Assembly: GCA_905235515.1 (NCBI GenBank)
Contig: CAJOLV010000002.1
Location: forward strand, 21,924 to 85,923
Length of the DNA: 64,000 nt
From: an uncultured Bacilli bacterium
GTDB taxonomy: Bacteria; Bacillota_I; Bacilli_A; RFN20; CAG-826
Direction: 5' to 3'
Notes under the pieces: model-generated
The model's database searches: none
Told to the model about the DNA's origin: nothing
What the model saw: only the letters and a program-made list of their open reading frames with translations
Position numbers and translations under genes: made by a program
Part shown: positions 8,023-61,164 of the stretch, in pieces
Numbering within the stretch: position 1 is the stretch's first letter
How the letters are laid out: each line of letters opens with the position of its first letter

Positions 8023-8062
8023 ACAACTATATTACAAATAATTTTTGTTTAAAAAAACAAAT

Positions 8063-8614
8063 TTAGTATTCTTTTACAAGCTTCAAATAATTGTTTGAGG
8101 CTCCATACCCATAAACTAAATCAAATAATTGTTGGTAATTTTGATAATTAACGCGATGGAAGCCGTTGTAGGCAGATTGATAAATGACATCGCCTTCTTG
8201 TGTTTTTAAGCCATTATCAATATAGCCATTTCGTTTATAAAAGGATTGTCTATTTACACGATTTGGATAATCAAGATAAGTTGGTTCAACCTCTTCAAAA
8301 CATAATAAAATCGTATAATCTGGATAAATTTGTCTAATATCGTGAAGAATTTGACTGCCATAACCCATATTTCTCATATCCATCTTAACAGCGAGATATG
8401 CGATATAGATGATATCTTTATAAATAACATAATGAATAAAACCAACAAATTGATTGTCTTGGTAATAACCGATGATGTGACTGTCATTAGTTCTAGCAAA
8501 GACTTTATAAAAATAATCAAAAGGTGGTCTCTCATTAATAGGAAAAGCCGAATTATATAAAGACTCAATATCATCTTTGATTGCTAGATTTTCTTTTAAA
8601 AATATCTTTTCCAT
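8063..8614 (-). CDS. GNAT family N-acetyltransferase
   Basis: Acetyl-CoA binding motif RNMGYGSQIL. It sits upstream of recN on the same strand. Confidence 0.7.
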   Translation of the reverse strand: MEKIFLKENLAIKDDIESLYNSAFPINERPPFDYFYKVFARTNDSHIIGYYQDNQFVGFIHYVIYKDIIYIAYLAVKMDMRNMGYGSQILHDIRQIYPDYTILLCFEEVEPTYLDYPNRVNRQSFYKRNGYIDNGLKTQEGDVIYQSAYNGFHRVNYQNYQQLFDLVYGYGASNNYLKLVKEY

Positions 8615-8711
8615 GATTCAATTCTAAAATAATCTCGTTTTTCATAAAAGAATTCTTTTATAAAAGAAATAAATTTGTAATAATGAGTTTAATAGTAAAA
8701 GGGGAGATATC

Positions 8712-9218
8712 ATGAAAAAATTAGTCGTTTATTTTTCTCGAGTGGGAGAAAACAGCGTTAACGGTCGCGTGGAAACAATCGCGAAAGGTTTTACAGAAAT
8801 TTTAGCGGAGAAAATCGCTAAGGAAGTGGACGGCGAATTATATCAATTAACACCAGTCGTTCCATATCCTACAAATTATGATGAGTGCGTCGCGAGAAGC
8901 AGAAGAGAAGATCAATCTGGTGAACGCGTTGAATATATTAAGAAATTAGAAAATCTCGATGAATATGAAATCATATATTTAGGTTACCCATGCTGGTGGA
9001 GATATTACCCAAGAGTGGTCGCAACCTTTATTAAAGATAATGTCTTTGTGGGAAAAACCATTTATCCATTCTGCACGAATGAAGAAGGTAAGATGGGCTT
9101 ATCTGAATTAGAACTCAAAGGCAGCGCGAGAGGCGCGATTGTTAAATCTGGTTTTGCTTGCAAAGGTAGCGAAGTGAACGACATCGATGAACAATTAAAG
9201 GATTGGCTAAAAAGATAA
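8712..9218 (+). CDS. Flavodoxin-like protein
   Basis: KLVVYFSRVGENS flavodoxin-like N-terminus, with AAAGGGGAG SD. Its TAA overlaps the ATG of the next gene. Confidence 0.55.
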   Translation: MKKLVVYFSRVGENSVNGRVETIAKGFTEILAEKIAKEVDGELYQLTPVVPYPTNYDECVARSRREDQSGERVEYIKKLENLDEYEIIYLGYPCWWRYYPRVVATFIKDNVFVGKTIYPFCTNEEGKMGLSELELKGSARGAIVKSGFACKGSEVNDIDEQLKDWLKR

Positions 9219-11014
9219 TGAAACAATTAAAACAAGATTTATTTTATGTCGGTGTAAACGACCATCAAATCGACCTCTTTGAAGGTCAATATATCGTTCC
9301 TAATGGAATGGCTTATAACTCCTATGTTATTAAAGATGAATTTATCGCCATTATGGATACAGTGGATCAACACTTCACTGATGAATGGCTAAAGAACATT
9401 CAAGAAGTATTAGGCGATTTAAAACCAACCTACCTTATTGTTCAACATACGGAGCCGGATCACTCTGCAAATATCATTAATTTTTTAAGAAAATATCCAG
9501 GCACATATGTCGTTGGTAACGCTAAGACATTTAAGATGATGGAACAATTCTTCCACGAAGAGATTCCTCATAAATTAGTGGTTAACGATGGTGATACCCT
9601 TAACTTAGGTAAACATACATTAACTTTTGTCTTCGCTCCTATGGTCCACTGGCCAGAAGTCATGGTTACCTATGATAGCGCTGATAAAGTGTTATTCTCC
9701 GCTGATGGATTTGGTAAATTCGGCGCGTTAGATGTCGAAGAAGAATGGGATTGTGAAGCGAGAAGATATTATATTGGTATCGTTGGTAAATATGGCGCAC
9801 AAGTTCAAGCTTTGTTAAAGAAAGCCGCCACATTAGATATCGAAATGATTTGCCCATTACATGGCCCAGTATTAAGTGAAGATTTAGGTCATTATCTCAA
9901 ACTCTATGATATTTGGAGTTCTTATCAAACTGAATCAGAAGGTGTCGCTATTTTCTACACATCAGATGGTCATACCAAGATAGCGGTGGAACTACTCGCT
10001 GAAGAGTTGAAGAAAAATGGAACTCCAAAAGTAGTAGTGGCAGATTTAGCTAGAGAAGATATGGCGGAATGCGTTGAAGATGCCTTTAGATATGGCAAGA
10101 TTGTCTTAGCAACAACTACTTATAACGCTGGTATCTTCCCATTTATGGATACATTTATTGCCCATTTAGTGGAAAGAAATTATCAAAATAAGAAGATTGC
10201 TTTTATTGAAAATGGCACCTGGGCTCCAATGGCGGCCAAAGTGATGAAAGATAAATTTGCTAACAGCAAAAACATCACATTTATCGAACCAAGTGTTCGC
10301 ATTTTATCTTCTTTGACAGAAGAAAACAAAGAACAGATTGCTAAATTAGCCTTAGTGTTATCAGAAGAATATAAAGCCCATAAGGAAATCAAAGAAGAAA
10401 AAGTTCCGGAATTAGATCCAAAGGCTTTGTTTAAAATTGGCTATGGCTTATATGTTGTGACATCTAATGATGGTAAAAAAGATAATGGTTTGATTGTTAA
10501 TACAGTCACTCAATTAACTGACACTCCACTTAAAGTTGCAGTTAATATTAATAAATTAAATTATTCTCACGATGTCATTAGAAAAACAGGAATTTTAAAT
10601 GTTAATTGTTTAAACCAAGAAACTCCATTTGCCATCTTCCAACAATTCGGTTTTGTCTCTGGTAAAGATAAAGATAAATTTGCCGGAGAGGAAGTGGTGT
10701 TAAGAAGTGAAAACGGTCTAAGAGTGTTACCAAATTATGTCAACGCCTTCTTCTCTTTAAAAGTTGAACAATATGTTGATTTAGGCACTCATGGAATGTT
10801 TATTTGTTCTGTTACTGAAAGTAAAACTATCAACAATATTGAAACAATGACATATAATTACTATCAAGCTAATGTTAAACCAAAACCAGAAACTAAGAAA
10901 AAAGGTTATGTCTGTAAAGTTTGTGGTTACGTCTATGAAGGCGATACATTACCAGAAGATATCGTTTGCCCATTATGTAAACATGGTGCGGCTGACTTTG
11001 AAGAAATAAAATAA
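9218..11014 (+). CDS. Multi-domain flavodiiron protein (metallo-beta-lactamase-like diiron + flavodoxin + flavin-reductase-like + rubredoxin domains)
   Basis: [10 protein letters not shown] diiron motif and a flavodoxin-like core. The flavin-reductase-like segment is LYVVTS...[10 protein letters not shown], and the C-terminal rubredoxin is CKVCGY...CPLCKHG. I set the start at ATG 9218 (TAATG overlap). Confidence 0.8.
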
Positions 11015-11024
11015 GGAGACGATG

Positions 11025-11177
11025 ATGAAATACGTTTGCGTTTGTGGTTACGTCTATGATGAAGAAAAAGGTGATCCAGAATTAGGTATTGCCCCAGGCA
11101 CTAAATTTGAAGATTTACCAGAAGACTTCGCTTGTCCGTGGTGTGGCCTTGGAAAAGAATCATTCAGCCAAGAATAA
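11025..11177 (+). CDS. Rubredoxin (50 aa; absent from the ORF track)
   Basis: Hand translation gives [50 protein letters not shown]. It has the CxxCG...CPxCG motifs, an AAGGAG SD 7 nt upstream, and a terminator downstream. Confidence 0.75.
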
Positions 11178-11186
11178 TGAACAACT

Positions 11187-11215
11187 AACCTCTTTGAAAA
11201 ATAGGAGGTTTTTTG
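11187..11215 (+). terminator. Rho-independent terminator after the rubredoxin gene
   Basis: AACCTC-loop-GAGGTT followed by TTTTT. Confidence 0.6.
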
Positions 11216-11252
11216 TTGCCCATTTTCACTTTATAAATGATAATAACAAATA

Positions 11253-11882
11253 ATGAAAGACTACGACTTATATCTATTTGATTTTGATGGCACATTAGTG
11301 GATACATTTAAATCCCTGGTGGAGATTTTCTCTCGCTCTTTTAAAGCGGTAGGAGTGGAGATTAAACCCGAGGATTGTCTTTTGTATTCTCGTCAACCAT
11401 TAGAAGATACATATGTATCATTAAACGCCCCAATGGACAAAGTGGATATTTTTGCCTCTCAAATACAGTATTGGCTTGATGATGAAGAAATCTTAAAAAT
11501 GGCAGAATTATTCCCTGATACATATAGGTGTCTAAAAGAGTTACACGAGGCTGATAAAACAATCGGAATTGTCACTAGTAATAGTGAACACCATGTCATT
11601 GATACATTTAGATATTTGAATATTCCTGTTGAATGGTTTTCTATCATTGTCGGAAATGATCAAGTGAAAGAATCAAAACCAAGCCCTCAACCAGTATTAT
11701 CTGCGCTAGAACAATCTCGTTATCTAAATAAAAGAGATAAGGTAGTTTATATCGGTGATGGAATTAATGATATGATTTCCGCTAATAGGGCGGGAGTGGA
11801 TGCCATATTAATAGATAGAGTAGATGCTTTTTCAGAATCAGACAATTATTCAAAAATTCAAACATTACTAGATTTAATTTAA
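11253..11882 (+). CDS. HAD-IA family hydrolase/phosphatase
   Basis: N-terminal FDFDGTLVDT motif I and C-terminal GDGINDM motif. Confidence 0.7.
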   Translation: MKDYDLYLFDFDGTLVDTFKSLVEIFSRSFKAVGVEIKPEDCLLYSRQPLEDTYVSLNAPMDKVDIFASQIQYWLDDEEILKMAELFPDTYRCLKELHEADKTIGIVTSNSEHHVIDTFRYLNIPVEWFSIIVGNDQVKESKPSPQPVLSALEQSRYLNKRDKVVYIGDGINDMISANRAGVDAILIDRVDAFSESDNYSKIQTLLDLI

Positions 11883-48829: not shown

Positions 48830-49768
48830 ATGGAAAAGAAAAACATTAGACTACTTTTTATGGGCACTCCAGAGATTAGTGCCAATGTGTTACGTGAAGT
48901 TATTAATGAAGGTTATAACGTCATTGGTGTTGTTGCTCAACCAGATCGCCCCATTGGACGTAAAGGTGAGCTTTTAAAAGTGCCAACAAAAGTGGTCGCA
49001 GAACAATATAATATTCCAGTATTTCAGCCTGTTAAAATCCGTAAGGACTATGAATTCATAAAAGAACTTAAACCTGACCTCATTTTAACTATTGCATATG
49101 GTCAGATTGTGCCACAAGGGTTGCTCGATATCCCACAATACGGTTGTTTAAATCTCCATGGTTCTTTATTACCTAAATATCGTGGAGCGGCTCCTATTCA
49201 ATACGCTCTTATTAATAACGAGAAAGTGTCTGGTATGACTCTTATGGAAATGATTGATAAAATGGATGCCGGCAAGATGTACGCAAAACAAGAAGTCATC
49301 ATAGATGAAGAAGATAATTCAACCTCATTATTTATCAAAATGGGAGATGCTGCTTGTGCATTAATAAAAAATGCTTTACCACAATATTTAGAAGGCAAAT
49401 TAGTGGGAGAAGAACAAGACGAAAATCTCGTCACATTCTGCCCAACAATTAAACCTGAACAAGAAAAGTTAAATCTTCAATTAAGCATTAAAGAACTATT
49501 TGGTTGGATTAGAGGATTATCCGACACACCAGGAGCCTATCTCTACTTAAATGAGACTAAATTAAAGATATATAAAGCTAAAGTATTCTCTAATAGTGTT
49601 GAAGGACAAATAGGGGAGATTGTTAAAGCAGATAAAGGTGGCCTAATTCTTCAATGCAAAGATGGGCAACTCTCATTATTAGAGCTGCAAAAAGAGGGTA
49701 AAAAACGAATGGATTTTAAGTCGTTTATTAACGGCAATCAAAATCTACAAGGAAAAATCTTAAAATAA
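48830..49768 (+). CDS. fmt: Methionyl-tRNA formyltransferase
   Basis: LLFMGTPEIS N-terminus and HGSLLPKYRGAAPIQ active-site motif. I set the start at ATG 48830 because ORF-track ATG 48815 lies inside the likely TATAAT -10. Confidence 0.9.
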   Translation: MEKKNIRLLFMGTPEISANVLREVINEGYNVIGVVAQPDRPIGRKGELLKVPTKVVAEQYNIPVFQPVKIRKDYEFIKELKPDLILTIAYGQIVPQGLLDIPQYGCLNLHGSLLPKYRGAAPIQYALINNEKVSGMTLMEMIDKMDAGKMYAKQEVIIDEEDNSTSLFIKMGDAACALIKNALPQYLEGKLVGEEQDENLVTFCPTIKPEQEKLNLQLSIKELFGWIRGLSDTPGAYLYLNETKLKIYKAKVFSNSVEGQIGEIVKADKGGLILQCKDGQLSLLELQKEGKKRMDFKSFINGNQNLQGKILK

Positions 49769-49792
49769 CACTAGTTATTGCTAGTGTTTTTT
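49767..49792 (+). terminator. Rho-independent terminator after fmt
   Basis: AACACTAG-ttattg-CTAGTGTT followed by TTTTT. Confidence 0.65.
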
Positions 49793-49806: not shown

Positions 49807-52149
49807 ATGGTCAAAGAATTAACTTTATCCGTGCACCAATTAGTCGATTTCTTATTAAGAACTGGCGATATTGATAATCGTTTTTTTAATGCTTCAACAA
49901 TGAGTGAAGGAAGTCGAATTCACTCATCATATCAATCTAGTCAAGGTGAAGACTATTTTAGCGAATATCCTCTTAAGAGGATTATCGAAATCAATAATGT
50001 CACTATTACTTTAGAGGGGAGAGCGGATGGTATCATCAAAAAGAAGTCTGGCGATTATATGATTGATGAGATTAAATCGACCACTATGGATTTGCAACAA
50101 TTCCGCTCAGAAAATATCGATTGGCATTTAGGGCAAGCAAAATGTTATGCCTACATGTTTGCCTATGAACAAAAACTTGATAGTGTCGATATCCGCTTAG
50201 TTTATATCCGTCAGGGAAAAGAAAAAGAAAGATTTAACGATTATTATCATTGTTCTTTTGAAGAACTAGAAGATTATGTTAAGAATCTATTATTAGATTA
50301 TCTCGCATTTTTTGATATAGTAGATGCTTCTCGACAAAAAAGAGATGAATCAATCAAGCAATTACAATTCCCGTTTGAAACATATCGTAAAGGGCAAAGA
50401 GAATTAGCAAAATATGCCTATTCGATTGCTAAAAATGGTGGTCGATTATTTGTGGAAGCTCCAACCGGCATTGGTAAAACTATGTCGACTTTGTTCCCGT
50501 TTATCAAATCAATTGGAGAAGATGAACAAAGTAAAATCTTCTATTTAACTGCAAAATCCTCAGGTAAAGAGGCAGCCTATAACGCAGTTGAATTATTAAA
50601 AAATAATTCTGGATTAGTAATTAATGATATAGTTGTCACCGCTAAAGATAAGATTTGTTTTTGTAAGGACTCAGCGTGTAATCCAGATGAATGTCCATTT
50701 GCCAAAGGCTATTATTCTAAAATTCAAGGAGTGCTTCATTACTCATTAATGAATTATTCGACCTTTGATTTTGACACAATTATTGAAATTGCTAATGAGA
50801 ATATGATTTGCCCATTTGAATTAGAATTAGACTTATCCCTTTTTTGTGATGTGATTATTTGTGATTACAATTATTTATTTGATCCATTATCACACATGAA
50901 GAGATATTTTGATGAAGATGCCAGTCATTATCTCGCTTTAATTGATGAGGCCCATAACCTTGTTGATCGCAGTAAAGATATGTACAGCGCTTCAATCACT
51001 TTTAATAAATTAAAAGAAGCCAGAAAATCTCTTAGACCAGTTAAGACTCCAAAGATTAAAAGACATTTAGGCAAAATTAAAGAAATCTTTGATGGTTTAA
51101 TTGATGAATATGAAATGGGTGAGACAATCTTTGATACATTAACCCTTGAACAATATAAAGTATTCATAGCTTTTTTAGATGCTTATATTGATGTTTCTAA
51201 AGAACACCATGAAGACATCAGCAAAGAATTAACAGATTTCTATTTAGAAATGAACCGCTTTATGCGTTTATATGAAATATATGATGGAGAAATCTTTCGA
51301 TTATATGTCAATAAAGAATTAGAAAGCGTTTCAATTAATATATATTGCATCGATGCTTCAGCTTTCTTAAGAAGTTCTATAGAACAATTAAAAGGCGCGG
51401 TCTATTTTTCGGCGACTTTATCGCCAATTAATTATTACATTGATACATTAGGAGGAAGAGAAGAGGAAGATGGTTCTTTGCTTTTGCCATCTCCATTTCC
51501 AAAAAAGAACTTTAAATTAATTGTTGCTCCTAAAGTATCGATTAAATACGTGAATAGAGAAACAACCTATTCTGTTGTCGCGGATTATATCAAAGAATTT
51601 GTTACCAATAAAATTGGTAATTACTTCATTTATTCTCCAAGTTACGAATATATGTATCGCCTTTTACAATGGATTGATTTAGATGATGATATATATGTGC
51701 AAAGTAGAGAGATGAGTGAAAAAGATAAAATCCTTTTCTTAAATAATTTTTCCGCTAATCCGACTAAGACATCAGTAGGATTTCTCGTTTTGGGTGGCGC
51801 CTTTGGTGAAGGCATCGACTTAATCTCTGACCGCCTTATTGGTGCGGTAATAATCGGTATTGGTTTACCAAAGATTAATTTTCAAAGTAATTTAATCGCT
51901 GATTATTACAAAGAAAAAGGTTTGAAAGGGCATGATTATGCCTACACAAACCCTGGCATGAATAAAGTCATGCAAGCGGTTGGGCGCGTTATACGTAGCG
52001 AAACCGATAAAGGAGCTGCTTTATTAATTGATGAAAGATTCTTATATCGCAATTATCAAGAACTATTTAGGAGTGAATGGAAAGATTATGATGTGGTATT
52101 AGAACCAGGACAAGTCGGTGAAATATTACAAAAGTTTTTCAATAAATAA
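49807..52149 (+). CDS. Fusion of an N-terminal Cas4/RecB-like PD-(D/E)xK nuclease domain with an Fe-S XPD/DinG-type SF2 helicase
   Basis: The N-terminal ~170 aa carry GRADGI (motif II D), IDEIKST (ExK) and GQAKCYAY (QxxxY). The helicase part has Walker A EAPTGIGKT, a four-Cys cluster CFCKDSACNPDECPF between Walker A and the DEAH box (DEAHNL), and a helicase C-terminal domain. Confidence 0.7.
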   Translation: MVKELTLSVHQLVDFLLRTGDIDNRFFNASTMSEGSRIHSSYQSSQGEDYFSEYPLKRIIEINNVTITLEGRADGIIKKKSGDYMIDEIKSTTMDLQQFRSENIDWHLGQAKCYAYMFAYEQKLDSVDIRLVYIRQGKEKERFNDYYHCSFEELEDYVKNLLLDYLAFFDIVDASRQKRDESIKQLQFPFETYRKGQRELAKYAYSIAKNGGRLFVEAPTGIGKTMSTLFPFIKSIGEDEQSKIFYLTAKSSGKEAAYNAVELLKNNSGLVINDIVVTAKDKICFCKDSACNPDECPFAKGYYSKIQGVLHYSLMNYSTFDFDTIIEIANENMICPFELELDLSLFCDVIICDYNYLFDPLSHMKRYFDEDASHYLALIDEAHNLVDRSKDMYSASITFNKLKEARKSLRPVKTPKIKRHLGKIKEIFDGLIDEYEMGETIFDTLTLEQYKVFIAFLDAYIDVSKEHHEDISKELTDFYLEMNRFMRLYEIYDGEIFRLYVNKELESVSINIYCIDASAFLRSSIEQLKGAVYFSATLSPINYYIDTLGGREEEDGSLLLPSPFPKKNFKLIVAPKVSIKYVNRETTYSVVADYIKEFVTNKIGNYFIYSPSYEYMYRLLQWIDLDDDIYVQSREMSEKDKILFLNNFSANPTKTSVGFLVLGGAFGEGIDLISDRLIGAVIIGIGLPKINFQSNLIADYYKEKGLKGHDYAYTNPGMNKVMQAVGRVIRSETDKGAALLIDERFLYRNYQELFRSEWKDYDVVLEPGQVGEILQKFFNK

Positions 52150-52176: not shown

Positions 52177-53991
52177 ATGGAATTTAAGAAAGATAAAATT
52201 AGAAATTTCTCAATCATCGCTCATATTGATCACGGTAAGTCCACATTAGCAGACCGTATTTTAGAAAGCACAGGAGCGATTGAATCCCGTGAGATGAAAG
52301 ATCAAATTCTCGACTCCATGGATTTAGAAAGAGAAAGAGGCATCACCATTAAATTAAATGCGGCGACTTTTTCTTATCACGCTGATGATGGTGAAGATTA
52401 TATCTTTAACTTGATTGACACTCCAGGGCATGTTGACTTTACTTACGAAGTAAGTAGAAGTTTAGCAGCGTGCGAAGGCGCGCTTTTGGTCGTAGACGCC
52501 ACGCAAGGCGTAGAAGCACAAACGCTCGCTAATACATATTTAGCTGTTGATAACGATTTAATGATTTTACCAGTCATTAATAAAGTGGATTTGCCGTCTG
52601 CTCGTCCAGATGTTGTTAAAAAAGAAATTGAAGATCGTATTGGTATTTCTTGTACAGATGCTTTGGAGGTAAGCGCTAAGACTGGTCAAGGCGTTCATCA
52701 ATTATTAGAAGCAATAGTGAGAGATATTCCTTCTCCAGAAGGTGATAAATCCGCTCCATTACAAGCTTTAATATTTGATAGTTATTACGACCCATATCGT
52801 GGTGTTATTATTCTTGTAAGAATAAAAGAAGGAACAGTATCCGTCGGTGACACTATTAGATTGATGCAAGCAGGAAAAGAATATCTCGTTACAGAATTAG
52901 GTATTAGAACCCCAGCGGAAGTAAAAGTTAATTCATTGAGTGTAGGCCAAGTTGGTTATATATGCGCACAAATTAAAGATATTCGTGATGTTCATCCAGG
53001 TGACACTGTTACATTAGTAAAAAATCCTGCTAATTGCCCGTTACCAGGTTATAAGATTATGAATCCAATGGTGTTCTGTGGTTTATATCCTGTCGATAGT
53101 GATGATTATTTAAACCTAAAAGATGCATTAGAAAAGCTCACTCTTAATGATGCATCATTACAATTTGTTGCTGAAACTAGCCAAGCCTTAGGCTTTGGCT
53201 TTAGATGTGGCTTCCTTGGATTGCTCCATATGGACATTATTCAAGAGAGATTAGAAAGAGAATATAATCTTAACCTCATTTTGACCGCTCCAAGCGTTAT
53301 TTATAAAGTTCATATGACCGATGGAACAGTAATTGACTTAGATAACCCATCAAAGATGCCAGAAGCCAGCAAAGTGGCCTTTATAGAAGAACCCTATGTA
53401 AAAGCCTCAATCATGACTCCTAGGGAGTATGTCGGACCAATCATGGAACTTTGCCAAGAAAGACGTGGCATTTATGAAAATCTAGAATATTTTGATGATA
53501 CAAGAATGATTATGACCTACGAACTTCCATTATCGGAAATTGTTTACAATTTCTTTGATAAATTAAAAAGTTACACAAAGGGATACGCCTCATTTGATTA
53601 TGAATACTCTTCATATAAGAAGGGTGATCTTGCTAAACTTGATGTTCTATTAAATGGCACAGTCGTGGATGCTTTAAGTAGCATCATCTATCGCCCAGAC
53701 GGATATCATAGAGGTTTAGGGGTAATTCGTAGAATTAAACAAGTTATACCTCGCCAACAATTTGAAATTCCAATCCAAGCCGCGATTGGTGGTAAAGTTG
53801 TTGCTAGATGTGATGTCAAAGCTGTTAGAAAAGACGTCCTCGCTAAGTGTTACGGTGGTGATATCAGCCGTAAGAAAAAACTCTTAGAAAAACAAAAAGA
53901 GGGTAAGAAAAGAATGAAGAAAGTTGGTAGTGTTGAAGTACCACAAGAAGCATTCATGTCAATTTTAAAAATTGACGAAGAAGAGGATTAG
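52177..53991 (+). CDS. lepA: Elongation factor 4 (LepA)
   Basis: [28 protein letters not shown] and the LepA-specific C-terminal domain. Confidence 0.95.
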
Positions 53992-54086
53992 TAGTTTTTT
54001 TGGTATAAAATTAGTAGTTTTTCAATTCCTCGTTGAAAAGTTTGAATTATATTCATATAATAATTTTAGAAACGAGGATTTTAATT

Positions 54087-55568
54087 ATGGCGAATAATGA
54101 ACTGGCGATTCGTTTTACCGAAGAAACTTATGCGACCAAAGCAGATGTGAGCCGTGAACTTGGTTTAACTCTTGTTGATAATATTTGGTCCAATATTTTA
54201 AAGTACAGAAGTACTTATTATCGTTACCTATCTTTAAAGAGTATTGATAAAAATCAATTAATGGTCTGCTATTGCCAATCTTTAAGTGGCACTCTTAATA
54301 ATATGGATGCCAAATTGCTGAAGCAAATGGGTGATTACATCAAACTCAATAGGATGAATGGTGATTTATCCCACTTTGAAGATATGTGTGTGATTAAATC
54401 TTTAGGCTATATTGCTGAGAAGAATCACATTGAAATATCAGAATCTAGATTGAGAAGTTTAATTCAAGGTGACTTACATGATTTTTCTTTAGATAAAAGA
54501 ATCTTTAAACGCTATGCTGATTCCTTAATTTTCATTAGAGATAATTATTCAAGAACTATTGATATCGACTTTTTAGCGGATATGTATTCTGTATTTACAG
54601 AAAATCCAGAATTGACCAGCTTCTACCGTACTAGCGAAGATAAAAACCCACTTAATAGAGTTCTCATCGATCGCATTTATTCCTCGGCTCCTGTTTATTT
54701 AATCGAACCTTTGATGAATCAATTATTCTTATTCATCTCAACATCTACTTTGACAAGTGTTGTCAAATCAATTATTGCATATTACTTTGTAAATTATGTG
54801 AGACCATTCCCACAAAATAATGAAGAAATCGCAATGTTATTAATGAAAGCGGTTTTAGCAAATGGTTCTCTTTCTGAATTTGGTGCCTTTGTACCATTAG
54901 AAAACTTATTAGTCCTCAATCAAGATGGATTCTCTAAAGTTTGTATCGAAGTACAAAAGACTAATGACCTTACATACTTCATTAATTACATCTTAAAAGC
55001 GATGGATTCTTCATTAGAAGATATTGCTGATATTAAAGCAATGCATACTTCTGAAATTCTCCGTAATGATTTCTATAAAGAAGAAACTCCAGTAGCGCCA
55101 GTCGTGGAACCAGCTCCAGCACCAACCCCTGTTCAAACAGTGGTTATTGAACAACCTGCTCCAGCTCCAGCGACACCAGCGCCACAACAAGTTGTGGTTC
55201 AAATCCAACCAGTTGCTGCCCCAACTCCAGCGCCTGCACCAGCGCCAGCTACAGAACCTCAATCTGCACCAGCACCAATGAGTCATGAGCTTGCGTTTAC
55301 ACAAATCCCACAAGTGCTTGATGAAAAAGCGGCAGCGAGATTAGAAGAACATTTATTAGAAATGGATCCAGCTTTAAAGAAAGGTGAAGCGCGTTTCTAT
55401 GCTAGACATTGTACAATGCATATGAATTATACAATTCAACAATATAAGAAAGCCCTTGGATGTGCTTATGAAACAGCAAGAACATCTATGGAACATCTCG
55501 TGGAATTGCATTATTATGAAAAAGCACAAATTAAAAATAAATTTGTCTACACACCAATCAAAAAATAG
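54087..55568 (+). CDS. Fic-fold protein with degenerate active-site motif, Pro/Ala-rich linker and C-terminal winged-helix-like domain
   Basis: VRPFPQNNEEIAMLL aligns position by position with Fic IHPFxDGNGRTGRLL but lacks the His, Asp, Gly and Arg. A PAPAPTP... linker follows. I set the start at ATG 54087, 6 nt after a GAGGA SD. Confidence 0.5.
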   Translation: MANNELAIRFTEETYATKADVSRELGLTLVDNIWSNILKYRSTYYRYLSLKSIDKNQLMVCYCQSLSGTLNNMDAKLLKQMGDYIKLNRMNGDLSHFEDMCVIKSLGYIAEKNHIEISESRLRSLIQGDLHDFSLDKRIFKRYADSLIFIRDNYSRTIDIDFLADMYSVFTENPELTSFYRTSEDKNPLNRVLIDRIYSSAPVYLIEPLMNQLFLFISTSTLTSVVKSIIAYYFVNYVRPFPQNNEEIAMLLMKAVLANGSLSEFGAFVPLENLLVLNQDGFSKVCIEVQKTNDLTYFINYILKAMDSSLEDIADIKAMHTSEILRNDFYKEETPVAPVVEPAPAPTPVQTVVIEQPAPAPATPAPQQVVVQIQPVAAPTPAPAPAPATEPQSAPAPMSHELAFTQIPQVLDEKAAARLEEHLLEMDPALKKGEARFYARHCTMHMNYTIQQYKKALGCAYETARTSMEHLVELHYYEKAQIKNKFVYTPIKK

Positions 55569-55583
55569 GAGGACGAAACATTT

Positions 55584-55826
55584 ATGATTTTAGAAAGTAA
55601 CCTTAGTGGACTTATTACATTCATTGTTATCATCGTTGTCGCAGCCTTAATCGCTGTGACTGCCTTTGTGATTCATCGTTTTCTCCATCCAAAATTGAAA
55701 AGTGACAATGAAAAACCATCCGAAGAAGAGATTATGAAAGAGGAACTTGATAGAGTTCTTCAACCAATCGATGATGAAAAAACAGCGGCAGAAGTGAACG
55801 CATATAAGGATGAAGAAAATGACTAA
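55584..55826 (+). CDS. Small single-pass membrane protein with acidic tail (80 aa)
   Basis: One hydrophobic helix (LITFIVIIVVAALIAVTAFVI), a GGAGG SD 8 nt upstream, and a 15-nt gap from the preceding gene. Confidence 0.45.
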   Translation: MILESNLSGLITFIVIIVVAALIAVTAFVIHRFLHPKLKSDNEKPSEEEIMKEELDRVLQPIDDEKTAAEVNAYKDEEND

Positions 55827-56334
55827 AGAAGAAGCCATAAAATTAAGCGAAAAGTGGAAAGCCGATAGTGCCTATCTCTTAGATGAAAGTGGTTGTTTTC
55901 CTTTAACTCTCCATATGCCTATCGATTTTATCGATAAGTGCAAAGAATTAGTCAAAAGAGATAATACATCTTTTGAAATATTAATGATGAACGCTCAATA
56001 TGCTTTATTACTTAAATTAGATATTGGCAATATCATTCCAGAAGATGAATTCAATGTCAAAAACGCTAAATCAATGGTGGAGCATTGGGAAAAAGTGAGC
56101 AAATATAACAGTCAAGACTTAATCCCGGTGCAAGTTGTGACAGATCCTGATGAAGTGAGAATTATCGCATCATTATTCAAAGTCTATCGCCATTTAGAAA
56201 ATAAAGACCTTTCTGTAGAGGACCTCTATTTAGAATATTTAAAAGCTTATTTAGAAACTGACCTTAAAACACTCATAGCGAGCCAAGAAGAGGTTTATGA
56301 AGAATTAGATGAAGACTTTAAAAAACAATTCTAA
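55819..56334 (+). CDS. Hypothetical protein (about 172 aa), translationally coupled between the small TM protein and hemW
   Basis: The ORF overlaps the upstream gene by 8 nt and the hemW start by 26 nt. I recognise no family. Confidence 0.5.
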   Translation: MTKEEAIKLSEKWKADSAYLLDESGCFPLTLHMPIDFIDKCKELVKRDNTSFEILMMNAQYALLLKLDIGNIIPEDEFNVKNAKSMVEHWEKVSKYNSQDLIPVQVVTDPDEVRIIASLFKVYRHLENKDLSVEDLYLEYLKAYLETDLKTLIASQEEVYEELDEDFKKQF

Positions 56335-57415
56335 AGCTCTTTATATCCATATTCCGTTTTGCGAACACTTATGTGATTACTGCGACTTTACCAAGCTGCA
56401 GTATTTTACTATATTTGCAAAACCATATTTAAAAAAACTCAAAGAAGAATTAGAGAGTTATCAAATTGGTCAATTAGAGACAATTTATGTCGGTGGTGGA
56501 ACTCCAACAGCTCTAGAAGATGACTTATTTGAAGAATTATTAGAAATCATTAAACCATACTCAAAAGGAGTAAAAGAATATACATTTGAATGTAATCCTG
56601 AATCTTTAAGCGATTATAAACTTTCTAAAATGAAAGAATATGGAGTTAATCGCTTATCCATCGGAGTGGAATCCACAAATAATGAGATTTTAAAATCAAT
56701 CAATCGTCATCATACTTTTGAAGATGTGAAAACCGCTACATTAAGGGCTAAAACATATGGCCAGGATAATATCAATGTCGATCTCATATTGGGCCTCCCG
56801 GGGGCCAATTTAGAGCAACTAAAGCAAGATTTGGATAATGTATTATCCCTCGGAATATCACATTTATCATGTTATTCATTAACTGTTCATCCAAATACAG
56901 TCTTTTATCTCAAACATATTCCAGAGCCACTTAGTGATCAAAGTCGTGAACTATATGACTATGTACATAAGGTCTTAAATGAGCGTGGCTTTATTCATTA
57001 TGAAGTATCAAACTGGGCGTTGCCAGGAAAAGAAAGTCAACACAATTTAGTCTATTGGAAAAATGAAGAATACTTTGGTGTGGGATTAGGCGCATCTGGT
57101 TATTTAGGAAATATCCATTACACGAACAGCAAAAGTGTCACTGAATATCTTAAAGGGAAGACGAGAGATATTGAGGAAGTAGTAACCAAACAAGATGATA
57201 TTGAATATCAAATCATGCTTAATTTAAGAACAATATATGGCCTAGATTTAAATCAATTTAAGAACAAATTCGGATATGATTTATCTAATGTCAAAGAAAA
57301 AGAAATAGCTAGATTGATAGAAAATAAATTGCTTTTTAAACAAGACAATAGACTCATACCAACTTACGAAGGGATGATGGTGTTAGATTCAATAATTCTA
57401 GATTTAATTTATTGA
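56309..57415 (+). CDS. hemW: Radical SAM heme chaperone HemW (HemN-like, oxygen-independent coproporphyrinogen-III oxidase-like)
   Basis: CxxxCxxC radical SAM motif (FCEHLCDYCDF) plus a HemN C-terminal domain, in the usual position downstream of lepA. Confidence 0.8.
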   Translation: MKTLKNNSKALYIHIPFCEHLCDYCDFTKLQYFTIFAKPYLKKLKEELESYQIGQLETIYVGGGTPTALEDDLFEELLEIIKPYSKGVKEYTFECNPESLSDYKLSKMKEYGVNRLSIGVESTNNEILKSINRHHTFEDVKTATLRAKTYGQDNINVDLILGLPGANLEQLKQDLDNVLSLGISHLSCYSLTVHPNTVFYLKHIPEPLSDQSRELYDYVHKVLNERGFIHYEVSNWALPGKESQHNLVYWKNEEYFGVGLGASGYLGNIHYTNSKSVTEYLKGKTRDIEEVVTKQDDIEYQIMLNLRTIYGLDLNQFKNKFGYDLSNVKEKEIARLIENKLLFKQDNRLIPTYEGMMVLDSIILDLIY

Positions 57416-57494: not shown

Positions 57495-58346
57495 ATGAAA
57501 AAATATTTGAAACAACATTATAACGAAGAAAGAGCCCTTTTTTCTTCATGCGATATCCTCGTTGAGGAATGCAAATTCTCAGAGGGCGAATCACCATTAA
57601 AAGAAAGCAAAAATGTTGAAGTTAACAAATGCGTATTTCAATGGAAATACCCTCTTTGGTATTGTCAAAATGTCAAAGTGAAGGAAACAACTTTTGAAGA
57701 GACAGCGAGAAGTGGCATTTGGTATACCGAAAACATCTCTTTAGAAGATTGTAATATCTTAGCTCCTAAAACATTTAGAAGCGCAAAACATGTTTATTTA
57801 AAAACTGTGGAAATGCCTAATGCAAAAGAGTCATTCTGGGGTTGCCAAGACATTAGACTGATCTCGGTTAACGCCGAAGGTGATTATTTCGGCGCTCGAT
57901 CAGAGAAGATTGAAGTTGATAATCTTTGCCTAAAAGGCAATTACCTCTTTGATTCCTGCAAAGATGTCGTCGTGAGAAATTCCGTTTTAGAAAGTAAAGA
58001 TGCTTTCTGGAATTGTGAAAATGTCACCTTAGTCAATTGCACAATTATTGGTGAATATCTCGCTTGGAACACCAAAAACATCACTTTAATCAATTGCAAA
58101 ATTGAATCACATCAAGGCCTTTGCTATATCGATGGCTTAAAGATGTACAATTGTGAAGTTAATAATTCAGACTTAATCTTAGAATATTCAAAGAACATTG
58201 ATGCTGACATTATCAGCGAAGTTGATTCGATTAAAAACCCATATAGCGGTAATATCATTGTTAAAGATGTTAAAGATTTAATCTTAGACCGTAAATATAT
58301 CGATCCTGCCAAGGTTAAAGTATATACTTCTCATCGTTATTATTAA
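57495..58346 (+). CDS. DUF3737-like right-handed beta-helix repeat protein
   Basis: Repeated about 22-aa units of the N(C)xxVxVxNCxF type, with an ERALF N-terminus. Confidence 0.55.
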   Translation: MKKYLKQHYNEERALFSSCDILVEECKFSEGESPLKESKNVEVNKCVFQWKYPLWYCQNVKVKETTFEETARSGIWYTENISLEDCNILAPKTFRSAKHVYLKTVEMPNAKESFWGCQDIRLISVNAEGDYFGARSEKIEVDNLCLKGNYLFDSCKDVVVRNSVLESKDAFWNCENVTLVNCTIIGEYLAWNTKNITLINCKIESHQGLCYIDGLKMYNCEVNNSDLILEYSKNIDADIISEVDSIKNPYSGNIIVKDVKDLILDRKYIDPAKVKVYTSHRYY

Positions 58347-58349
58347 TAT

Positions 58350-59498
58350 ATGAAATTCAATTTTGACGTTTTAGCCAAAAGGAAAAACACCAATAGTGTT
58401 AAATATGATGAATATAATTCATGTCTCCCTATGTGGGTTGCAGACATGGATTTTCTTTTAGCGCCAGCCATTAAAAACGCGATTCAAAAAGACCTCGATA
58501 TCGGTGCGATTGGTTATTCGATGCTTCCTGATGCTTATTTTGAAGCTTTTGTGAATCTTTATCATCGTCGTTATAATACGAACTTCACCAAAGGTGATAT
58601 GGCTTATGTCAGCGGTGTTGTCGCAGCGATTGACTCCATCTTAAAACAAATGTGCGAAAAAGGTGACAATGTCGTGATGTTATCACCGATTTATCATACT
58701 TTTTATCACTGCATTGAGAATCTTGGATTCCGTCCTTTGACATCGGATATGAAATATAATGGCGAACAATACGAGATTAATTATCAAGATTTAGAAGAAA
58801 AACTGTCTAATTCGAGAAGTAAGGTCTTTATCTTATGTAATCCACATAATCCAATGGGGAGAATATTCTTAAAAGAAGAATTAGAAAAGATTGAAGAATT
58901 ATGTTTAAAACATAATGTTCTCATCATTTCTGATGAAATACATGGTTTATTAACTAATCCAGGAGTGAAATATATCCCATTTAGTAATGCGGCAAAATCT
59001 GATAATTATATTATGTGTTTAGCGACATCAAAAGCCTTTAATCTTGCTGGGTTACAATCCGCCGCGATAGTGTGCAAAAACAAAGAACTCAGAGAGAAAA
59101 TACAAGAAGCTTTCTATCGAGATGACATTGGTGAACCAAATTACTTTGCAGTCAATGCAAATATTGCAGCGTTAAACGATAGTGAAGATTGGCTAGATGA
59201 ATTAAACGAATACATCTATCAAAATAAAATATATTTTAAAAAATATATCGAGGAGCAGATCCCACAAATACGTGTTATCATGTCAGATGCGACATATATG
59301 ATGTGGGTCGATTGTCGTAAGGTTACTAATGATAGCAAAGCTTTCATAGAACAATTGGATCAAAAAACAGGATTAAGAGTGTGCCCAGGTATTCAATTTG
59401 GTCAATGTGGTGAAGGATTCTTTAGAATCAATCTTGCCACCTCATTAGCAAATGTTAAATTGGCCGCTCAAAAATTAGTGGAATTCGTTAAGGGTTAG
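58350..59498 (+). CDS. PatB/MalY-type PLP-dependent C-S lyase (aminotransferase class I/II fold)
   Basis: AAT-like fold with the PLP-Lys region SKAFNLAGLQSA and a MalY/PatB-type N-terminus. Confidence 0.8.
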   Translation: MKFNFDVLAKRKNTNSVKYDEYNSCLPMWVADMDFLLAPAIKNAIQKDLDIGAIGYSMLPDAYFEAFVNLYHRRYNTNFTKGDMAYVSGVVAAIDSILKQMCEKGDNVVMLSPIYHTFYHCIENLGFRPLTSDMKYNGEQYEINYQDLEEKLSNSRSKVFILCNPHNPMGRIFLKEELEKIEELCLKHNVLIISDEIHGLLTNPGVKYIPFSNAAKSDNYIMCLATSKAFNLAGLQSAAIVCKNKELREKIQEAFYRDDIGEPNYFAVNANIAALNDSEDWLDELNEYIYQNKIYFKKYIEEQIPQIRVIMSDATYMMWVDCRKVTNDSKAFIEQLDQKTGLRVCPGIQFGQCGEGFFRINLATSLANVKLAAQKLVEFVKG

Positions 59499-59499
59499 C

Positions 59500-59718
59500 A
59501 TGTGTTTCTTTAAGAAAAAGACCACAGTAGTGGAAACTAAGTATAAAAAGGAAGATCCAGTCTCCTTTATCTACAATGGAGATGAATATATCGGATGGAT
59601 TTATAAAGTTTATCCAAAGGATAATTGTGAGACAATCTATGATTGCCAAATCGGTGGACAATGTCCAGCGATTGCAAAAGGGATAAAGGAAAAAGACATT
59701 AGCCCTAGAAAAGAATAA
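59500..59718 (+). CDS. Small hypothetical protein (72 aa, 4 Cys)
   Basis: ORF starts 2 nt after the patB stop, behind AAGGG. I recognise no family. Confidence 0.4.
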   Translation: MCFFKKKTTVVETKYKKEDPVSFIYNGDEYIGWIYKVYPKDNCETIYDCQIGGQCPAIAKGIKEKDISPRKE

Positions 59719-59761
59719 AAACAATAATTATTATAATAATGATTGATGGAGGAAAATAGTT

Positions 59762-60190
59762 ATGGCAAACTGGTCAAAATCATTCGAAACATATTTAAAA
59801 TTAAATGAGAGACAACGCTTAGGAATTGGACATAAATCCAATGAAATCTTAGAAAAAGAGTTTGAAAAGCTCACTGAAGAAGATATTCTTCGCCCAACAC
59901 TCTACTTATTAGCGATTGCTCCATTTGCATCAGAGGAAGAAGAACTCAGCAAAAAAGAGTTTGATTTTATCAAACAAGTAATTGGATATAAAGATGGATA
60001 TGATAAATATCTCGATTTAGTGAAAAAGGGCAAGAATGAAAAGCTTGCCAAGTTCTTTCAAGCCTATTTTAAGAAACTTGATGGTGACATCTTCACAGCC
60101 TATTTATCTCTTGGTTTAGCTATCTTAACAATTAAGGGCGAACAAAGAGAAGAAGATGTCGAATTACTCGTAAAAATCTACGAACAATAA
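59762..60190 (+). CDS. Hypothetical helical protein (142 aa; possibly TerB-like repeats)
   Basis: GGAGG SD. Two helical repeats with a hydrophobic-then-EEE pattern. Confidence 0.5.
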   Translation: MANWSKSFETYLKLNERQRLGIGHKSNEILEKEFEKLTEEDILRPTLYLLAIAPFASEEEELSKKEFDFIKQVIGYKDGYDKYLDLVKKGKNEKLAKFFQAYFKKLDGDIFTAYLSLGLAILTIKGEQREEDVELLVKIYEQ

Positions 60191-60258
60191 AACTACTAAC
60201 TAAGAAAGTTAACTTTGTTAAAGTAAACTAAAAAACTACTAAATATCTACTAATTTAT

Positions 60259-61164
60259 ATGGACTCATTAAAGAGCTTAATGGACAAAAGACAATACGAA
60301 TTAGTGCTTAAACTCACGGAAAATTCGATTGATCCAACATACTTGTTTTATCGCATCAGCGCACTTCTTGCGCTAGGGCGAGCTCAAGAATCTTTAAAGT
60401 GTATTGAAGATAACCGTGTTCTCTTACAAAAGGAATTATCCGTTTTGATTAAAGTCCATATCGAAATCTTATGCCTTTTAGGCATGTTTGACAAAGCTTA
60501 TGAGGAAATGAAATATTATCAAAATCTCCCTTATGCTTCTCAAGTCGTGGAAGAATTATTAGCAAAACTTCCAGAATATATTCGCGCTGAAGAGAAGAAG
60601 GCTTATTCAAGTCGAGAAATGGATGAACGCCAAATTAAAAATTTGACCCGTTCAAAAGATTTAAATGACGTCATTTTTGCTTTAGACCTTATTAAAGAAA
60701 GAGATGTTAATAAATTTCTTGATGATGTTAAATGGTTAATGGTAAACCATCAAAGCCAATCCATTCGTTCTTTCTCGTTGTTTGTCTTGGTGCAAAAGAA
60801 AGTCAGTGGAGTGTTTGATTTCAAACACATTGATAAAATTATCCAAGTTGAGCCAGCTAATTTGAAACCTCCATTTATGGGAGATTGGTTTAATGGCTTA
60901 GTGAAGAAGTTATCAATTGAATTAAATGATCCTTCAGTTAGTGAAAACGCTATTCAGATTCTTTCTTCTCATTTAATGTTTATTTATCCAGATGAGATTA
61001 ATTATAGTGACGAAGAAATTATTGAGGCTCTCTATCAAATATCAAGTGCATATTTGCAAAGCAACAAAGATAATTTAGAAGACCGAAGCGCTTTGAAAAA
61101 TCTTTCTGTTGAAAGAGTACAAAAACTGATGGATGAGATTAACTTCTCTTTAGAGAATTTCTAA
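60259..61164 (+). CDS. Hypothetical protein (301 aa)
   Basis: Long ORF with plausible codon usage. I recognise no family. Confidence 0.5.
   Translation: MDSLKSLMDKRQYELVLKLTENSIDPTYLFYRISALLALGRAQESLKCIEDNRVLLQKELSVLIKVHIEILCLLGMFDKAYEEMKYYQNLPYASQVVEELLAKLPEYIRAEEKKAYSSREMDERQIKNLTRSKDLNDVIFALDLIKERDVNKFLDDVKWLMVNHQSQSIRSFSLFVLVQKKVSGVFDFKHIDKIIQVEPANLKPPFMGDWFNGLVKKLSIELNDPSVSENAIQILSSHLMFIYPDEINYSDEEIIEALYQISSAYLQSNKDNLEDRSALKNLSVERVQKLMDEINFSLENF

Follow-up and report, generated by a model that had tools for sequence, protein, structure and literature searches.

The window, i.e., the whole 64,000-nucleotide stretch of DNA analyzed here (from an uncultured Bacilli bacterium), contained lepA, three genes referred to as ORF1, ORF2 and ORF3, and hemW, together with a promoter-like site and a direct-repeat element (Table 1). 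The product of hemW belonged to the HemW family: the TIGR00539 score was 297.3 bits against an equivalog cut-off of 205.4, and PF04055 and PF06969 were both present. The coordinates of the open reading frames confirmed the tight packing, with overlap into hemW, that had been given in a preliminary description of the locus: a gap of 15 nt between ORF1 and ORF2, and overlaps of 8 nt between ORF2 and ORF3 and of 26 nt between ORF3 and hemW. Relatives of ORF1 were numerous (more than 736 at full length; at least 218 clusters at 50% identity with E<1e-30; about 100 species representatives), ORF2 was found in all related loci, and the dN/dS value of ORF3 was low (0.11; see below); ORF1, ORF2 and ORF3 are therefore judged to be real genes and not chance ORFs.

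Table 1. Coordinates of the genes and features in the window.
Feature	Position	Strand	Remarks
lepA (EF4)	52177..53991	+	Pfam GTP_EFTU and LepA_C; usual 5' neighbor, outside the conserved unit
Direct-repeat element, candidate operator (ATTAGTAG, TTGGTAT, ATTAGTAG)	53987..54021	+	Spacings of 12 and 11 nt
Sigma-70-type promoter-like site for ORF1-ORF2-ORF3-hemW	54033..54061	+	TTGAAA-17 nt-TATAAT; 11/12 match
ORF1, degenerate SoFic-type Fic protein, 493 aa	54087..55568	+	
Domains of ORF1			Residues 5-61, helix-helix-helix-hairpin (winged-helix-like); ~64-330, Fic core; 336-405, disordered P/A-rich linker; 410-493, winged helix
Degenerate active-site loop of ORF1, RPFPQNNEEIAM	54801..54836	+	Residues 239-250; replaces HPFx(D/E)GN(G/K)RxxR
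C-terminal winged helix-turn-helix of ORF1	55314..55565	+	Alignments, 84 loci, AF2 topology
ORF2, single-pass membrane protein, 80 aa	55584..55826	+	
ORF3, orphan, 171 aa	55819..56334	+	174 aa if started at the in-frame ATG at 55810
hemW, radical-SAM heme chaperone	56309..57415	+	TIGR00539, Radical_SAM, HemN_C; last conserved operon gene
Second strong TTAGTAG copy	60218..60255	-	PWM scores of 33.5 and 17.9

ORF1 showed both the alpha-helical Fic-core fold and a significant profile match to the Fic/Fido superfamily: a search of its family profile against PDB retrieved 4rgl (E value of 3.7e-14; residues 66-314), and the SoFic model of PADLOC matched with an E value of 2e-10. The Pfam PF02661 score for the single sequence was 18.4 bits, below the gathering cut-off of 24, and matches to phage Fic-like families in PHROG were weak. 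The active-site loop RPFPQNNEEIAM aligned to FIHPFADGNGRMGRL of 4rgl, and the consensus of the ORF1 family at this site was KPFxxxNEEIAxLL. ORF1 lacked the HxFx(D/E)GN(G/K)R signature, with the catalytic His and anion hole, of a competent Fic enzyme, and the first His of the motif was found in none of the family members examined: 34 diverse sequences and 84 loci, down to 27% identity. The class II inhibitory motif, [S/T]xxxE[G/N], was not found N-terminal to the core of ORF1; SLAIEN of 4rgl aligned to IAEKNH, a segment of ORF1 in the window that was not conserved across the family. ELTSFYR was also considered as the inhibitory helix and was rejected, because the profile alignment placed it in the flap region, in which FYR was invariant. 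Six further residues near the former active site were invariant: R181, P240, F241, E247, D294, and T296. The profile match and the family-wide loss of His bore out the earlier assignment of the first gene product as a Fic-fold protein with a degenerate catalytic motif, and ORF1 is predicted to be catalytically inactive.

The linker and C-terminal winged helix that had been proposed for this protein were both recovered: a P/A-rich stretch at about residues 336-405 and an AF2 domain at residues 413-490. The topology of the latter (H413-426, H432-443, H450-458, H468-473, E477-482, and E485-490) conformed to a winged helix after the Fic core, as in class II, and Penicillinase_R (BlaI/MecI winged-helix) matched weakly (E value of 0.013). 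This domain was the most conserved segment of ORF1 in three alignments and among the 84 loci; the recognition helix was AYETARTSM, and H441-C442 was nearly invariant. Judged from its sequence, ORF1 is derived from a class-II SoFic/CccR-type Fic enzyme, with every catalytic residue gone.

The operon has its own predicted promoter, and TTGNNN and TATAAT hexamers occurred at the same place 5' of ORF1 in most relatives. The Shine-Dalgarno sequence of ORF1 (GAGGA) was located at 54074-54078; TTG at 54033 was rejected as the start of ORF1, since it is part of the -35 hexamer of the promoter-like site. No terminator-like site was found 3' of lepA, and no Rfam RNA element within 49-61.5 kb. The repeat element lay just 5' of the -35 hexamer, and its first copy overlapped the stop codon of lepA. 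When up to three mismatches were allowed, TTAGTAG-N4-TTAGTAG was detected in 78 of the 84 loci with an 11-bp period, mostly 40-73 nt 5' of the ATG of ORF1, and in three loci without lepA upstream the element kept its position in the reversed orientation. Among 157 strong hits of a position weight matrix (PWM) for the repeats, 133 were 5' of ORF1 and 24 elsewhere in 0.88 Mb, while shuffled sequence gave 0. The second strong copy in the window ended 4 nt ahead of the ATG that starts a 301-aa ORF without annotation (60259-61164), this site was also present in two related loci (L087 and L089), and the element also preceded the helicase gene. Since the repeats abutted the start codon at these two other kinds of site, the arrangement fits repression, and the element is not exclusive to the ORF1 operon. 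The recognition helix and the repeat core were checked for covariation and showed none: the core appeared to be altered in one locus (TAGTC in L078) while the helix was unchanged. A sigma-54 promoter, DnaA-trios, and a replication origin were each rejected as identities of the repeats: the spacing was inconsistent, the GC skew was monotonic, and sigma-70-type -35/-10 hexamers were located downstream.

The order ORF1-ORF2-hemW was kept in all 81 of the relatives' loci covering the region, with ORF1 identities down to 30%. In 80 species-representative loci, helicase-lepA-ORF1-ORF2-hemW was retained as far as the contigs reached, except for three without lepA upstream, and lepA was directly 5' of ORF1 in all but three of the loci extending far enough upstream. 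Since ORF1, ORF2 and hemW stayed together in the loci in which lepA was not upstream (L069, L072, and L085), the conserved tie is to hemW, not to lepA. ORF1 and LepA diverged in step across the relatives, the composition matched that of the neighboring genes, and neither mobile-element genes nor flanking repeats were present at the locus. On the 3' side of hemW, hrcA-grpE-dnaK-dnaJ was still found in more distant relatives, and DUF3737 and an aminotransferase in the lineage of the window. ORF1-ORF2-hemW is an old, clade-wide, vertically inherited operon of uncultured gut Bacilli. A three-gene insertion between lepA and hemW had been proposed earlier, on the ground that hemN/hemW normally follows lepA directly in Bacilli; ORF1 and ORF2 preceded hemW in all 81 loci, and only ORF3 is recent. 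The alternative named there, an ancestral housekeeping operon with a family-wide gene order, applied to ORF1 and ORF2, and did not apply to ORF3.

ORF2 consisted of an N-terminal transmembrane segment, followed by HRFLHPKLK and an acidic tail, which is probably cytoplasmic; the motif EELDRVLxP(I/V)(E/D)DE at residues 53-65 was conserved. Each related locus that spans the region contained it between ORF1 and hemW: the gap separating it from ORF1 was 12 nt at the median, and it overlapped the start of hemW in 75 of 81 loci. No curated family was found for ORF2; TIGR04561 (small charged membrane protein) scored 19.5 bits against a cut-off of 30, a resemblance that is probably compositional. The inhibitory [S/T]xxxE[G/N] motif was absent from ORF2, and a profile search outside the clade yielded 131 small unnamed proteins and nothing else.

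The ORF3 protein was acidic and mostly helical. Its homologues were limited to two protein clusters among 5.8 billion sequences, and it was present only in the species of the window and one sister lineage (the window itself, L092, L093, and L094). It was missing from L087, L089 and L091, in which ORF1 identity was 88-70%, and from each of the 80 genome loci. In comparison with its only known homologues, dN/dS was 0.11 at a dS of about 0.95. ORF3 is under purifying selection, and its insertion at the ORF2-hemW junction is recent and lineage-specific, with overlaps kept on both sides. Sequence searches of Pfam, NCBIfam, PHROGs, PADLOC and PDB gave no solid match; phrog_36116 (E value of 0.021) was rejected since the homologue did not reproduce the match. 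There was also no match by tblastn against phages and plasmids or in scans of IMG/VR and JGI metagenomes, no paralogue within the window, and no direct or inverted repeats flanking ORF3 as a sign of mobile origin. An internal duplication was considered and found no BLASTP support, and the single-sequence AF2 model (pLDDT of 40) was unusable. The functional reading of both ORF2 and ORF3 was based on position and composition.

The fold, the motif loss, the gene order, the conserved promoter and repeats, and the recent gain of and purifying selection on ORF3 were shown by the analysis. With moderate confidence, we propose that ORF1 is a DNA-binding regulator resembling SoFic/CccR, domesticated and non-catalytic, that is expressed together with HemW and a membrane partner from an ancestral operon. 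The near-invariant winged helix would bind the TTAGTAG repeats 5' of its own -35 hexamer and a few further sites, and the dead Fic domain would act as a module for binding a protein or ligand. CccR represses its own promoter by means of the DNA-binding domain at its C terminus (PMC9755527), SoFic binds the DNA of its own promoter (bioRxiv 10.64898/2026.07.09.737422), and Coxiella Fic2 binds DNA (PMC10628234); by analogy, ORF1 is probably autoregulatory. FIC domains can also act non-catalytically, as in BepC and AvrB (PMC7842960). ORF2 is predicted to be translated together with HemW, and its probable role is to tether or partner either HemW or ORF1 at the membrane. ORF3 joined the operon, between ORF2 and hemW, in the ancestor shared by the window species and one sister lineage, preserving translational coupling on both sides. 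Several observations count against the regulator model: the 11-bp period of the repeats is also typical of OmpR/PhoB-type regulators, helix and repeat core did not covary, the element occurred at other sites as well, and neither SoFic nor CccR has the long disordered linker or the extra N-terminal domain.

Hexamer direct repeats with an 11-bp period beside the -35 hexamer are the classic sites of PhoP, PhoB and WalR, response regulators of the OmpR/PhoB type, and the TTAGTAG repeats share this architecture. They could therefore be bound by another regulator, for example, of this family, with ORF1 unrelated to them and acting, for example, as a scaffold/chaperone-like partner of ORF2 and HemW. 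The presence of the element before the helicase gene and the 301-aa ORF, and the lack of covariation between helix and site, agree with such an arrangement; however, 133 of the 157 strong hits were at the ORF1 promoter, the element moved with ORF1 where lepA was absent, and autoregulation is documented for the closest characterized relatives, so that we regard it as a minority possibility of some weight. Fic folds support varied chemistries (Doc and AnkX), and the invariant residues around the former active site (P240, F241, E247, D294, T296, and R181) might suggest that ORF1 is still an enzyme, with a different chemistry from a remodeled active site. Nevertheless, all Fic/Doc activities known to us require the motif His and anion hole, both of which are missing, and the acidic residues (N/S-E/D-E) in place of the anion hole would repel phosphates; this explanation appears very unlikely.

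A role in translation instead of transcription, with ORF1 binding a translational GTPase (LepA or EF-Tu) non-catalytically through a retained SoFic-like docking surface, is improbable in our view. In the case of SoFic, switch I of EF-Tu is both the docking site and the target of AMPylation (bioRxiv 10.64898/2026.07.09.737422), the flap-region FYR is invariant, and lepA is directly 5' of ORF1 in almost all loci; on the other hand, ORF1 has its own predicted promoter, three loci keep ORF1-ORF2-hemW without lepA, and the winged helix is the best conserved part, which argues for nucleic-acid binding. GTPase binding and DNA binding by ORF1 are compatible with each other. A regulatory or defense-related module had also been suggested in the preliminary description; in a toxin-antitoxin or anti-phage defense module, ORF1 would be a SoFic-like effector, and ORF2 and/or ORF3 the antitoxin or sensor. 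The match to the PADLOC SoFic model, the weak PHROG matches to phage Fic-like families, and a geometry of ORF1 and ORF2 equal to that of E. coli Sofic and its small downstream antitoxin AS1 (PMC12249575) are in line with this suggestion. However, it predicts a patchy, mobile distribution and a live toxin, and was therefore not supported: neither a sporadic mobile distribution, nor an active toxin, nor a neutralizing small partner was apparent from gene order and sequence. The locus was fixed among housekeeping genes in 81 of 81 cases, with ORF1 tracking the divergence of LepA, unlike defense islands; its composition was like that of its neighbors, and mobile-element genes and flanking repeats were not present. 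The catalytic His and GNGR anion hole were gone family-wide, and ORF2 is a membrane protein without [S/T]xxxE[G/N]. We consider a defense function extremely unlikely.

Returning to ORF1 as a DNA-binding regulator, a more far-reaching scenario may be put forward only tentatively, and we hold it to be doubtful as a whole. A SoFic toxin-type enzyme would have been domesticated at the base of an order-level, small-genome clade of uncultured gut Bacilli into a dead, membrane-linked transcription factor acting on TTAGTAG repeats at its own, the helicase-lepA, and the 301-aa-gene promoters. Through its dead Fic domain, this factor would sense a ligand or protein (e.g., a translational GTPase, HemW/heme, or the ORF2 tail), and the family would represent a new class of pseudoenzyme regulator, with ORF3 as a newly born add-on.

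Fic proteins have been studied almost wholly as enzymes, toxins, and defense effectors. The ORF1 family is large and has no curated annotation; it has long retained the Fic fold without catalytic residues beside hemW, and is accompanied by a membrane mini-protein and a DNA repeat element that are conserved along with it. Should ORF1 bind the repeats, this would demonstrate a route from a toxin-type enzyme to a dedicated regulator, and offer a way into the study of gene regulation in an uncultured lineage of the gut and rumen. ORF3 is a clean case of a very young two-lineage gene, already under purifying selection, slotted into an overlapping-gene junction.

In the canonical cluster of Bacilli (e.g., Bacillus subtilis), the gene order is lepA-hemN/hemW-hrcA-grpE-dnaK-dnaJ. 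The flanking genes and their order were alike in the present clade, which differs by the addition of ORF1 and ORF2 between lepA and hemW, and of ORF3 in the lineage of the window. Among characterized Fic proteins, SoFic from Shewanella oneidensis (PDB 3eqx/3zcn) resembles ORF1 in having a Fic core followed by a winged helix, and E. coli Sofic is followed by the small gene AS1 (PMC12249575) as ORF1 is by ORF2; AS1 has 47 aa, whereas ORF2 is an 80-aa membrane protein, and the two were set side by side by description. In contrast to SoFic, ORF1 has lost the catalytic His, GNGR loop, and [S/T]xxxE[G/N], carries ~60 additional aa as an N-terminal domain and, before the winged helix, ~70 aa of disordered P/A-rich linker, and is located in a fixed housekeeping operon instead of a sporadic defense locus. 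CccR from Yersinia pseudotuberculosis is an autoregulator and toxin with Fic and DNA-binding domains, and at the promoter of ORF1 there is likewise a conserved candidate operator; CccR is, however, active (AMPylating FtsZ) and secreted by a T6SS, while for ORF1, which belongs to a Gram-positive-derived lineage, the prediction is an inactive, cytoplasmic protein. Dde_2494 Fic (PDB 4rgl) and Fic2 from Coxiella burnetii (PDB 8cil) keep HPFxDGNGR and share only ~12% identity with ORF1. BepC (Bartonella) and AvrB (Pseudomonas syringae) are similar to ORF1 in the use of the Fic fold as a binding module without catalysis (PMC7842960), but differ as secreted effectors in eukaryotic hosts without a winged helix, and the FIC motif of BepC is still recognizable.

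Three genes lie between lepA and hemW, encoding a Fic-fold protein (ORF1), a small membrane protein (ORF2), and an orphan protein (ORF3). ORF1 and ORF2 were separated by 15 nt, ORF2 overlapped ORF3 by 8 nt, and ORF3 overlapped hemW by 26 nt, in full agreement with the preliminary description. The base composition and GC3 of the three genes were the same as those of the neighbouring genes. The lepA and hemW genes can be securely assigned from their sequences. A longer ORF1 starting from TTG at 54033 was rejected as an ORF-calling artefact because this TTG belongs to the -35 hexamer of the sigma-70-like site.

Positions of genes and putative regulatory elements in the window
Feature	Position	Strand	Remarks
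lepA	52177-53991		GTP_EFTU and LepA_C
TTAGTAG repeats	53987; 54000; 54010		ATTAGTAG; TTGGTAT; ATTAGTAG; end a few nt upstream of -35
Sigma-70-like site	54033-54061		TTGAAA, 17 nt, TATAAT; 11/12 match
Shine-Dalgarno of ORF1	54074-54078		GAGGA
ORF1	54087-55568		493 aa
ORF2	55584-55826		80 aa
ORF3	55819-56334		171 aa; 174 aa from in-frame ATG at 55810
hemW	56309-57415		TIGR00539, 297 bits (cut-off 205)
Second repeat copy, very strong	60218-60255	minus	TTAGTAG-N4-TTAGTAG-N4-TTAG; ends 4 nt before ATG of 301-aa ORF
301-aa ORF	60259-61164		unannotated; Shine-Dalgarno not visible

More than 736 full-length relatives of ORF1 were detected, none with an informative name, and homologues with E<1e-30 formed 218 clusters at 50% identity. 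When one genome per GTDB species was scanned, a relative was present in 100 species. These were without exception MAGs of uncultured Bacilli, Erysipelotrichaceae, Mollicutes, or Candidatus Onthovivens, and most came from the gut, the rumen, or digesters. Across the 80 loci retained (identity down to 30% for ORF1 and 67% for LepA), the order was DinG-like helicase, lepA, ORF1, small ORF, and hemW. In each locus covering the region, the small ORF was an ORF2 homologue, in which a single TM segment precedes a basic stretch and an acidic tail bearing EELDRVLxP(I/V)(E/D)DE. The median gap between ORF1 and ORF2 was 12 nt, and in 75 of 81 loci the end of ORF2 ran into the start of hemW (median overlap, 14 nt). 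Since ORF1, ORF2, and hemW still adjoined each other in three loci without lepA upstream (L069, L072, and L085), they form a conserved unit. Judging from the order kept across the relatives, ORF1 and ORF2 were thus probably gained once, deep in the clade, and inherited vertically since, and an ancestral operon is highly probable. The initially claimed insertion of all three genes did not hold as a recent event: ORF1 and ORF2 are old, with an order fixed across the 80 loci, and the insertion is ORF3 alone.

The region following hemW (57495-60190 in the window) was a rearrangement point, the gene content of which differed between subclades. In more distant relatives (L002/L004, 8900-13500), hrcA-grpE-dnaK-dnaJ came next, the classical arrangement of Bacilli known from Bacillus subtilis; in the window and the related loci L087 and L089, DUF3737 and an aminotransferase were accompanied by two small uncharacterised ORFs of 72 and 142 aa; and in locus L091, unrelated genes lay on the opposite strand (7874-11479). 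The helicase upstream of lepA (49807-52149, 780 aa; DEAD_2/Helicase_C_2, XPD/DinG-like, rad3 at E 1.6e-48), syntenic with lepA throughout the clade, gave a weak Cas4-like nuclease match at its N-terminus (TIGR00372, E 4.5e-5, residues 31-141).

ORF3 was absent from all 80 loci and from the nearest relatives (88%, 75%, and 70% ORF1 identity), in which ORF2 stops 4-18 nt before hemW. Among 5.8 billion sequences, only two protein clusters matched; family, structure, phage, plasmid, viral-contig, and metagenome searches gave no match, and neither a paralogue in the window nor flanking repeats were found. A single sister lineage also has the gene, with identical overlaps, on three short contigs. 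On two of these, ORF1 clusters with that of the window at 90% identity; the third was too short to contain ORF1. Identity with the sister copies was 81-82% (dS ~0.95-1.0, dN ~0.11), and dN/dS was 0.11, versus ~0.03 for the neighbouring ORF2 and hemW fragments, indicating that ORF3 is a genuine gene, subject to purifying selection and diverging more rapidly than the genes beside it. We consider its recent gain very likely. With a pI of 4.6 the protein is acidic, and most of it is predicted to form helices; the structure model from the single sequence was not usable. At best we would guess that it assists the ORF2/HemW pair as a cytoplasmic accessory factor. A 38-nt segment at the ORF3 end and hemW start (56285-56322; EEVYEELDEDFK) was 71% identical to 56517-56554 inside hemW (EDDLFEELLEIIK); this similarity may be accidental, or may reflect the way in which the 3' end of ORF3 and the new hemW start originated.

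The Pfam Fic model matched the single ORF1 sequence under the cut-off (E 0.004; 18.4 bits against 24). The ORF1 family profile matched the solved Fic protein 4rgl at E 3.7e-14 (residues 66-314) and Coxiella Fic2 (8cil) at 1.2e-10, followed by FICD and SoFic; the PADLOC SoFic model also matched ORF1 (E 2e-10). An AlphaFold2 model built with 90 homologues had pLDDT of ~90 across residues 11-330, with a helix-helix-helix-hairpin topology at residues 5-61. The loop YVRPFPQNNEEIAML was aligned opposite FIHPFADGNGRMGRL. His did not occur at the first motif position in any of 34 diverse relatives (27-64% identity) or 84 genomic loci, where the residue was instead K, R, Q, W, Y, or A, and the GNGR anion hole was replaced by N/S-E/D-E-I/L; the segment aligned with SLAIEN, the class-II inhibitory motif of 4rgl, was not conserved in the family. 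In the divergent relative L078, the loop was IAPFSLHNPLMG. The Fic fold is thus assigned with high confidence, and we are equally confident of the loss of its motif, bearing out the degenerate active site proposed previously. The linker and C-terminal winged-helix-like domain of that proposal were also present: a disordered P/A-rich linker (residues 336-405), the length of which differs among relatives, and a winged-helix domain (residues 410-493), the best-conserved region of the entire protein, with a near-invariant recognition helix (AYETARTSM). Six imperfect 18-nt repeats (AACCAGCTCCAGCACCAA-like; 55108-55278) encode the linker, which ranges from ~50 to >150 residues among relatives and is also highly variable in composition. 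Near-invariant H441-C442 (55407-55412) and the mostly kept C459 (55461-55463) flank the recognition helix; that redox state, metal, or haem might be sensed here, beside a haem-chaperone gene, is pure speculation.

The spacer preceding ORF1 (75-97 nt) contained two or three TTAGTAG direct repeats with an 11-bp period. Of 84 non-redundant loci, 78 contained TTAGTAG-N4-TTAGTAG (up to 3 mismatches), mostly 40-73 nt upstream of ATG. The element was retained, in reverse orientation, where lepA is missing upstream (three loci), and so goes with ORF1 rather than with the 3' end of lepA. A PWM gave 133 strong matches upstream of ORF1 versus 24 in the remaining ~0.88 Mb, whereas shuffled sequence gave none; no Rfam family matched the region. 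We regard the promoter with its repeat element as very likely. The remaining PWM matches clustered immediately before the helicase start codon and immediately before the 301-aa ORF. The latter site recurs in L087 and L089; it suggests either that a small regulon exists or that this gene is repressed at its 5' end. In a distant subgroup, three or four repeats abutted the helicase start codon (L071:636-684, L073:568, L076:487, L079:615-663, and L084:460-508); the window had only a degenerate CTAGT-N6-CTAGT there (49767-49790), which itself folds into a terminator-like hairpin. In L078 (4930-5000), TAGTC replaced the core TAGTA in both copies, and the recognition helix was unaltered.

Binding of ORF1 itself to these repeats is possible, if somewhat doubtful. 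Another regulator may act on them, since hexamer repeats at an 11-bp period are likewise typical of OmpR/PhoB-type response regulators. ORF1 may instead act on a translational GTPase, a reading weakened by the loci without lepA, or may retain an enzymatic activity of an unrecognised kind. A toxin-antitoxin or defence module, raised in the preliminary description, is contradicted both by the fixed position of the genes and by the dead active site; that description had itself taken family-wide conservation of gene order as evidence to the contrary, and ORF1-ORF2-hemW is conserved in this manner.

Several known Fic systems provide precedents for a regulatory role. CccR represses its own promoter via a DNA-binding domain (PMC9755527), SoFic both AMPylates EF-Tu and binds the promoter of its own gene (bioRxiv 10.64898/2026.07.09.737422), and Coxiella Fic2 binds DNA (PMC10628234). 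A small antitoxin gene lies downstream of E. coli Sofic (PMC12249575), and the FIC domains of BepC and AvrB work without catalysis (PMC7842960). Based on these precedents, we propose that ORF1 may be a domesticated, catalytically dead member of the Fic and DNA-binding-domain lineage. Of its ancestor's two functions it would have retained DNA binding with autoregulation, the dead Fic domain serving as a binding module. For ORF2, a guess would be a membrane partner of either ORF1 or HemW, and the role suggested for ORF3 is likewise a guess. In comparison with these systems, the locus is a new version of the Fic-plus-winged-helix regulators that is non-catalytic, extends through the clade, and has become fixed within a housekeeping operon, plus one newly acquired orphan gene.
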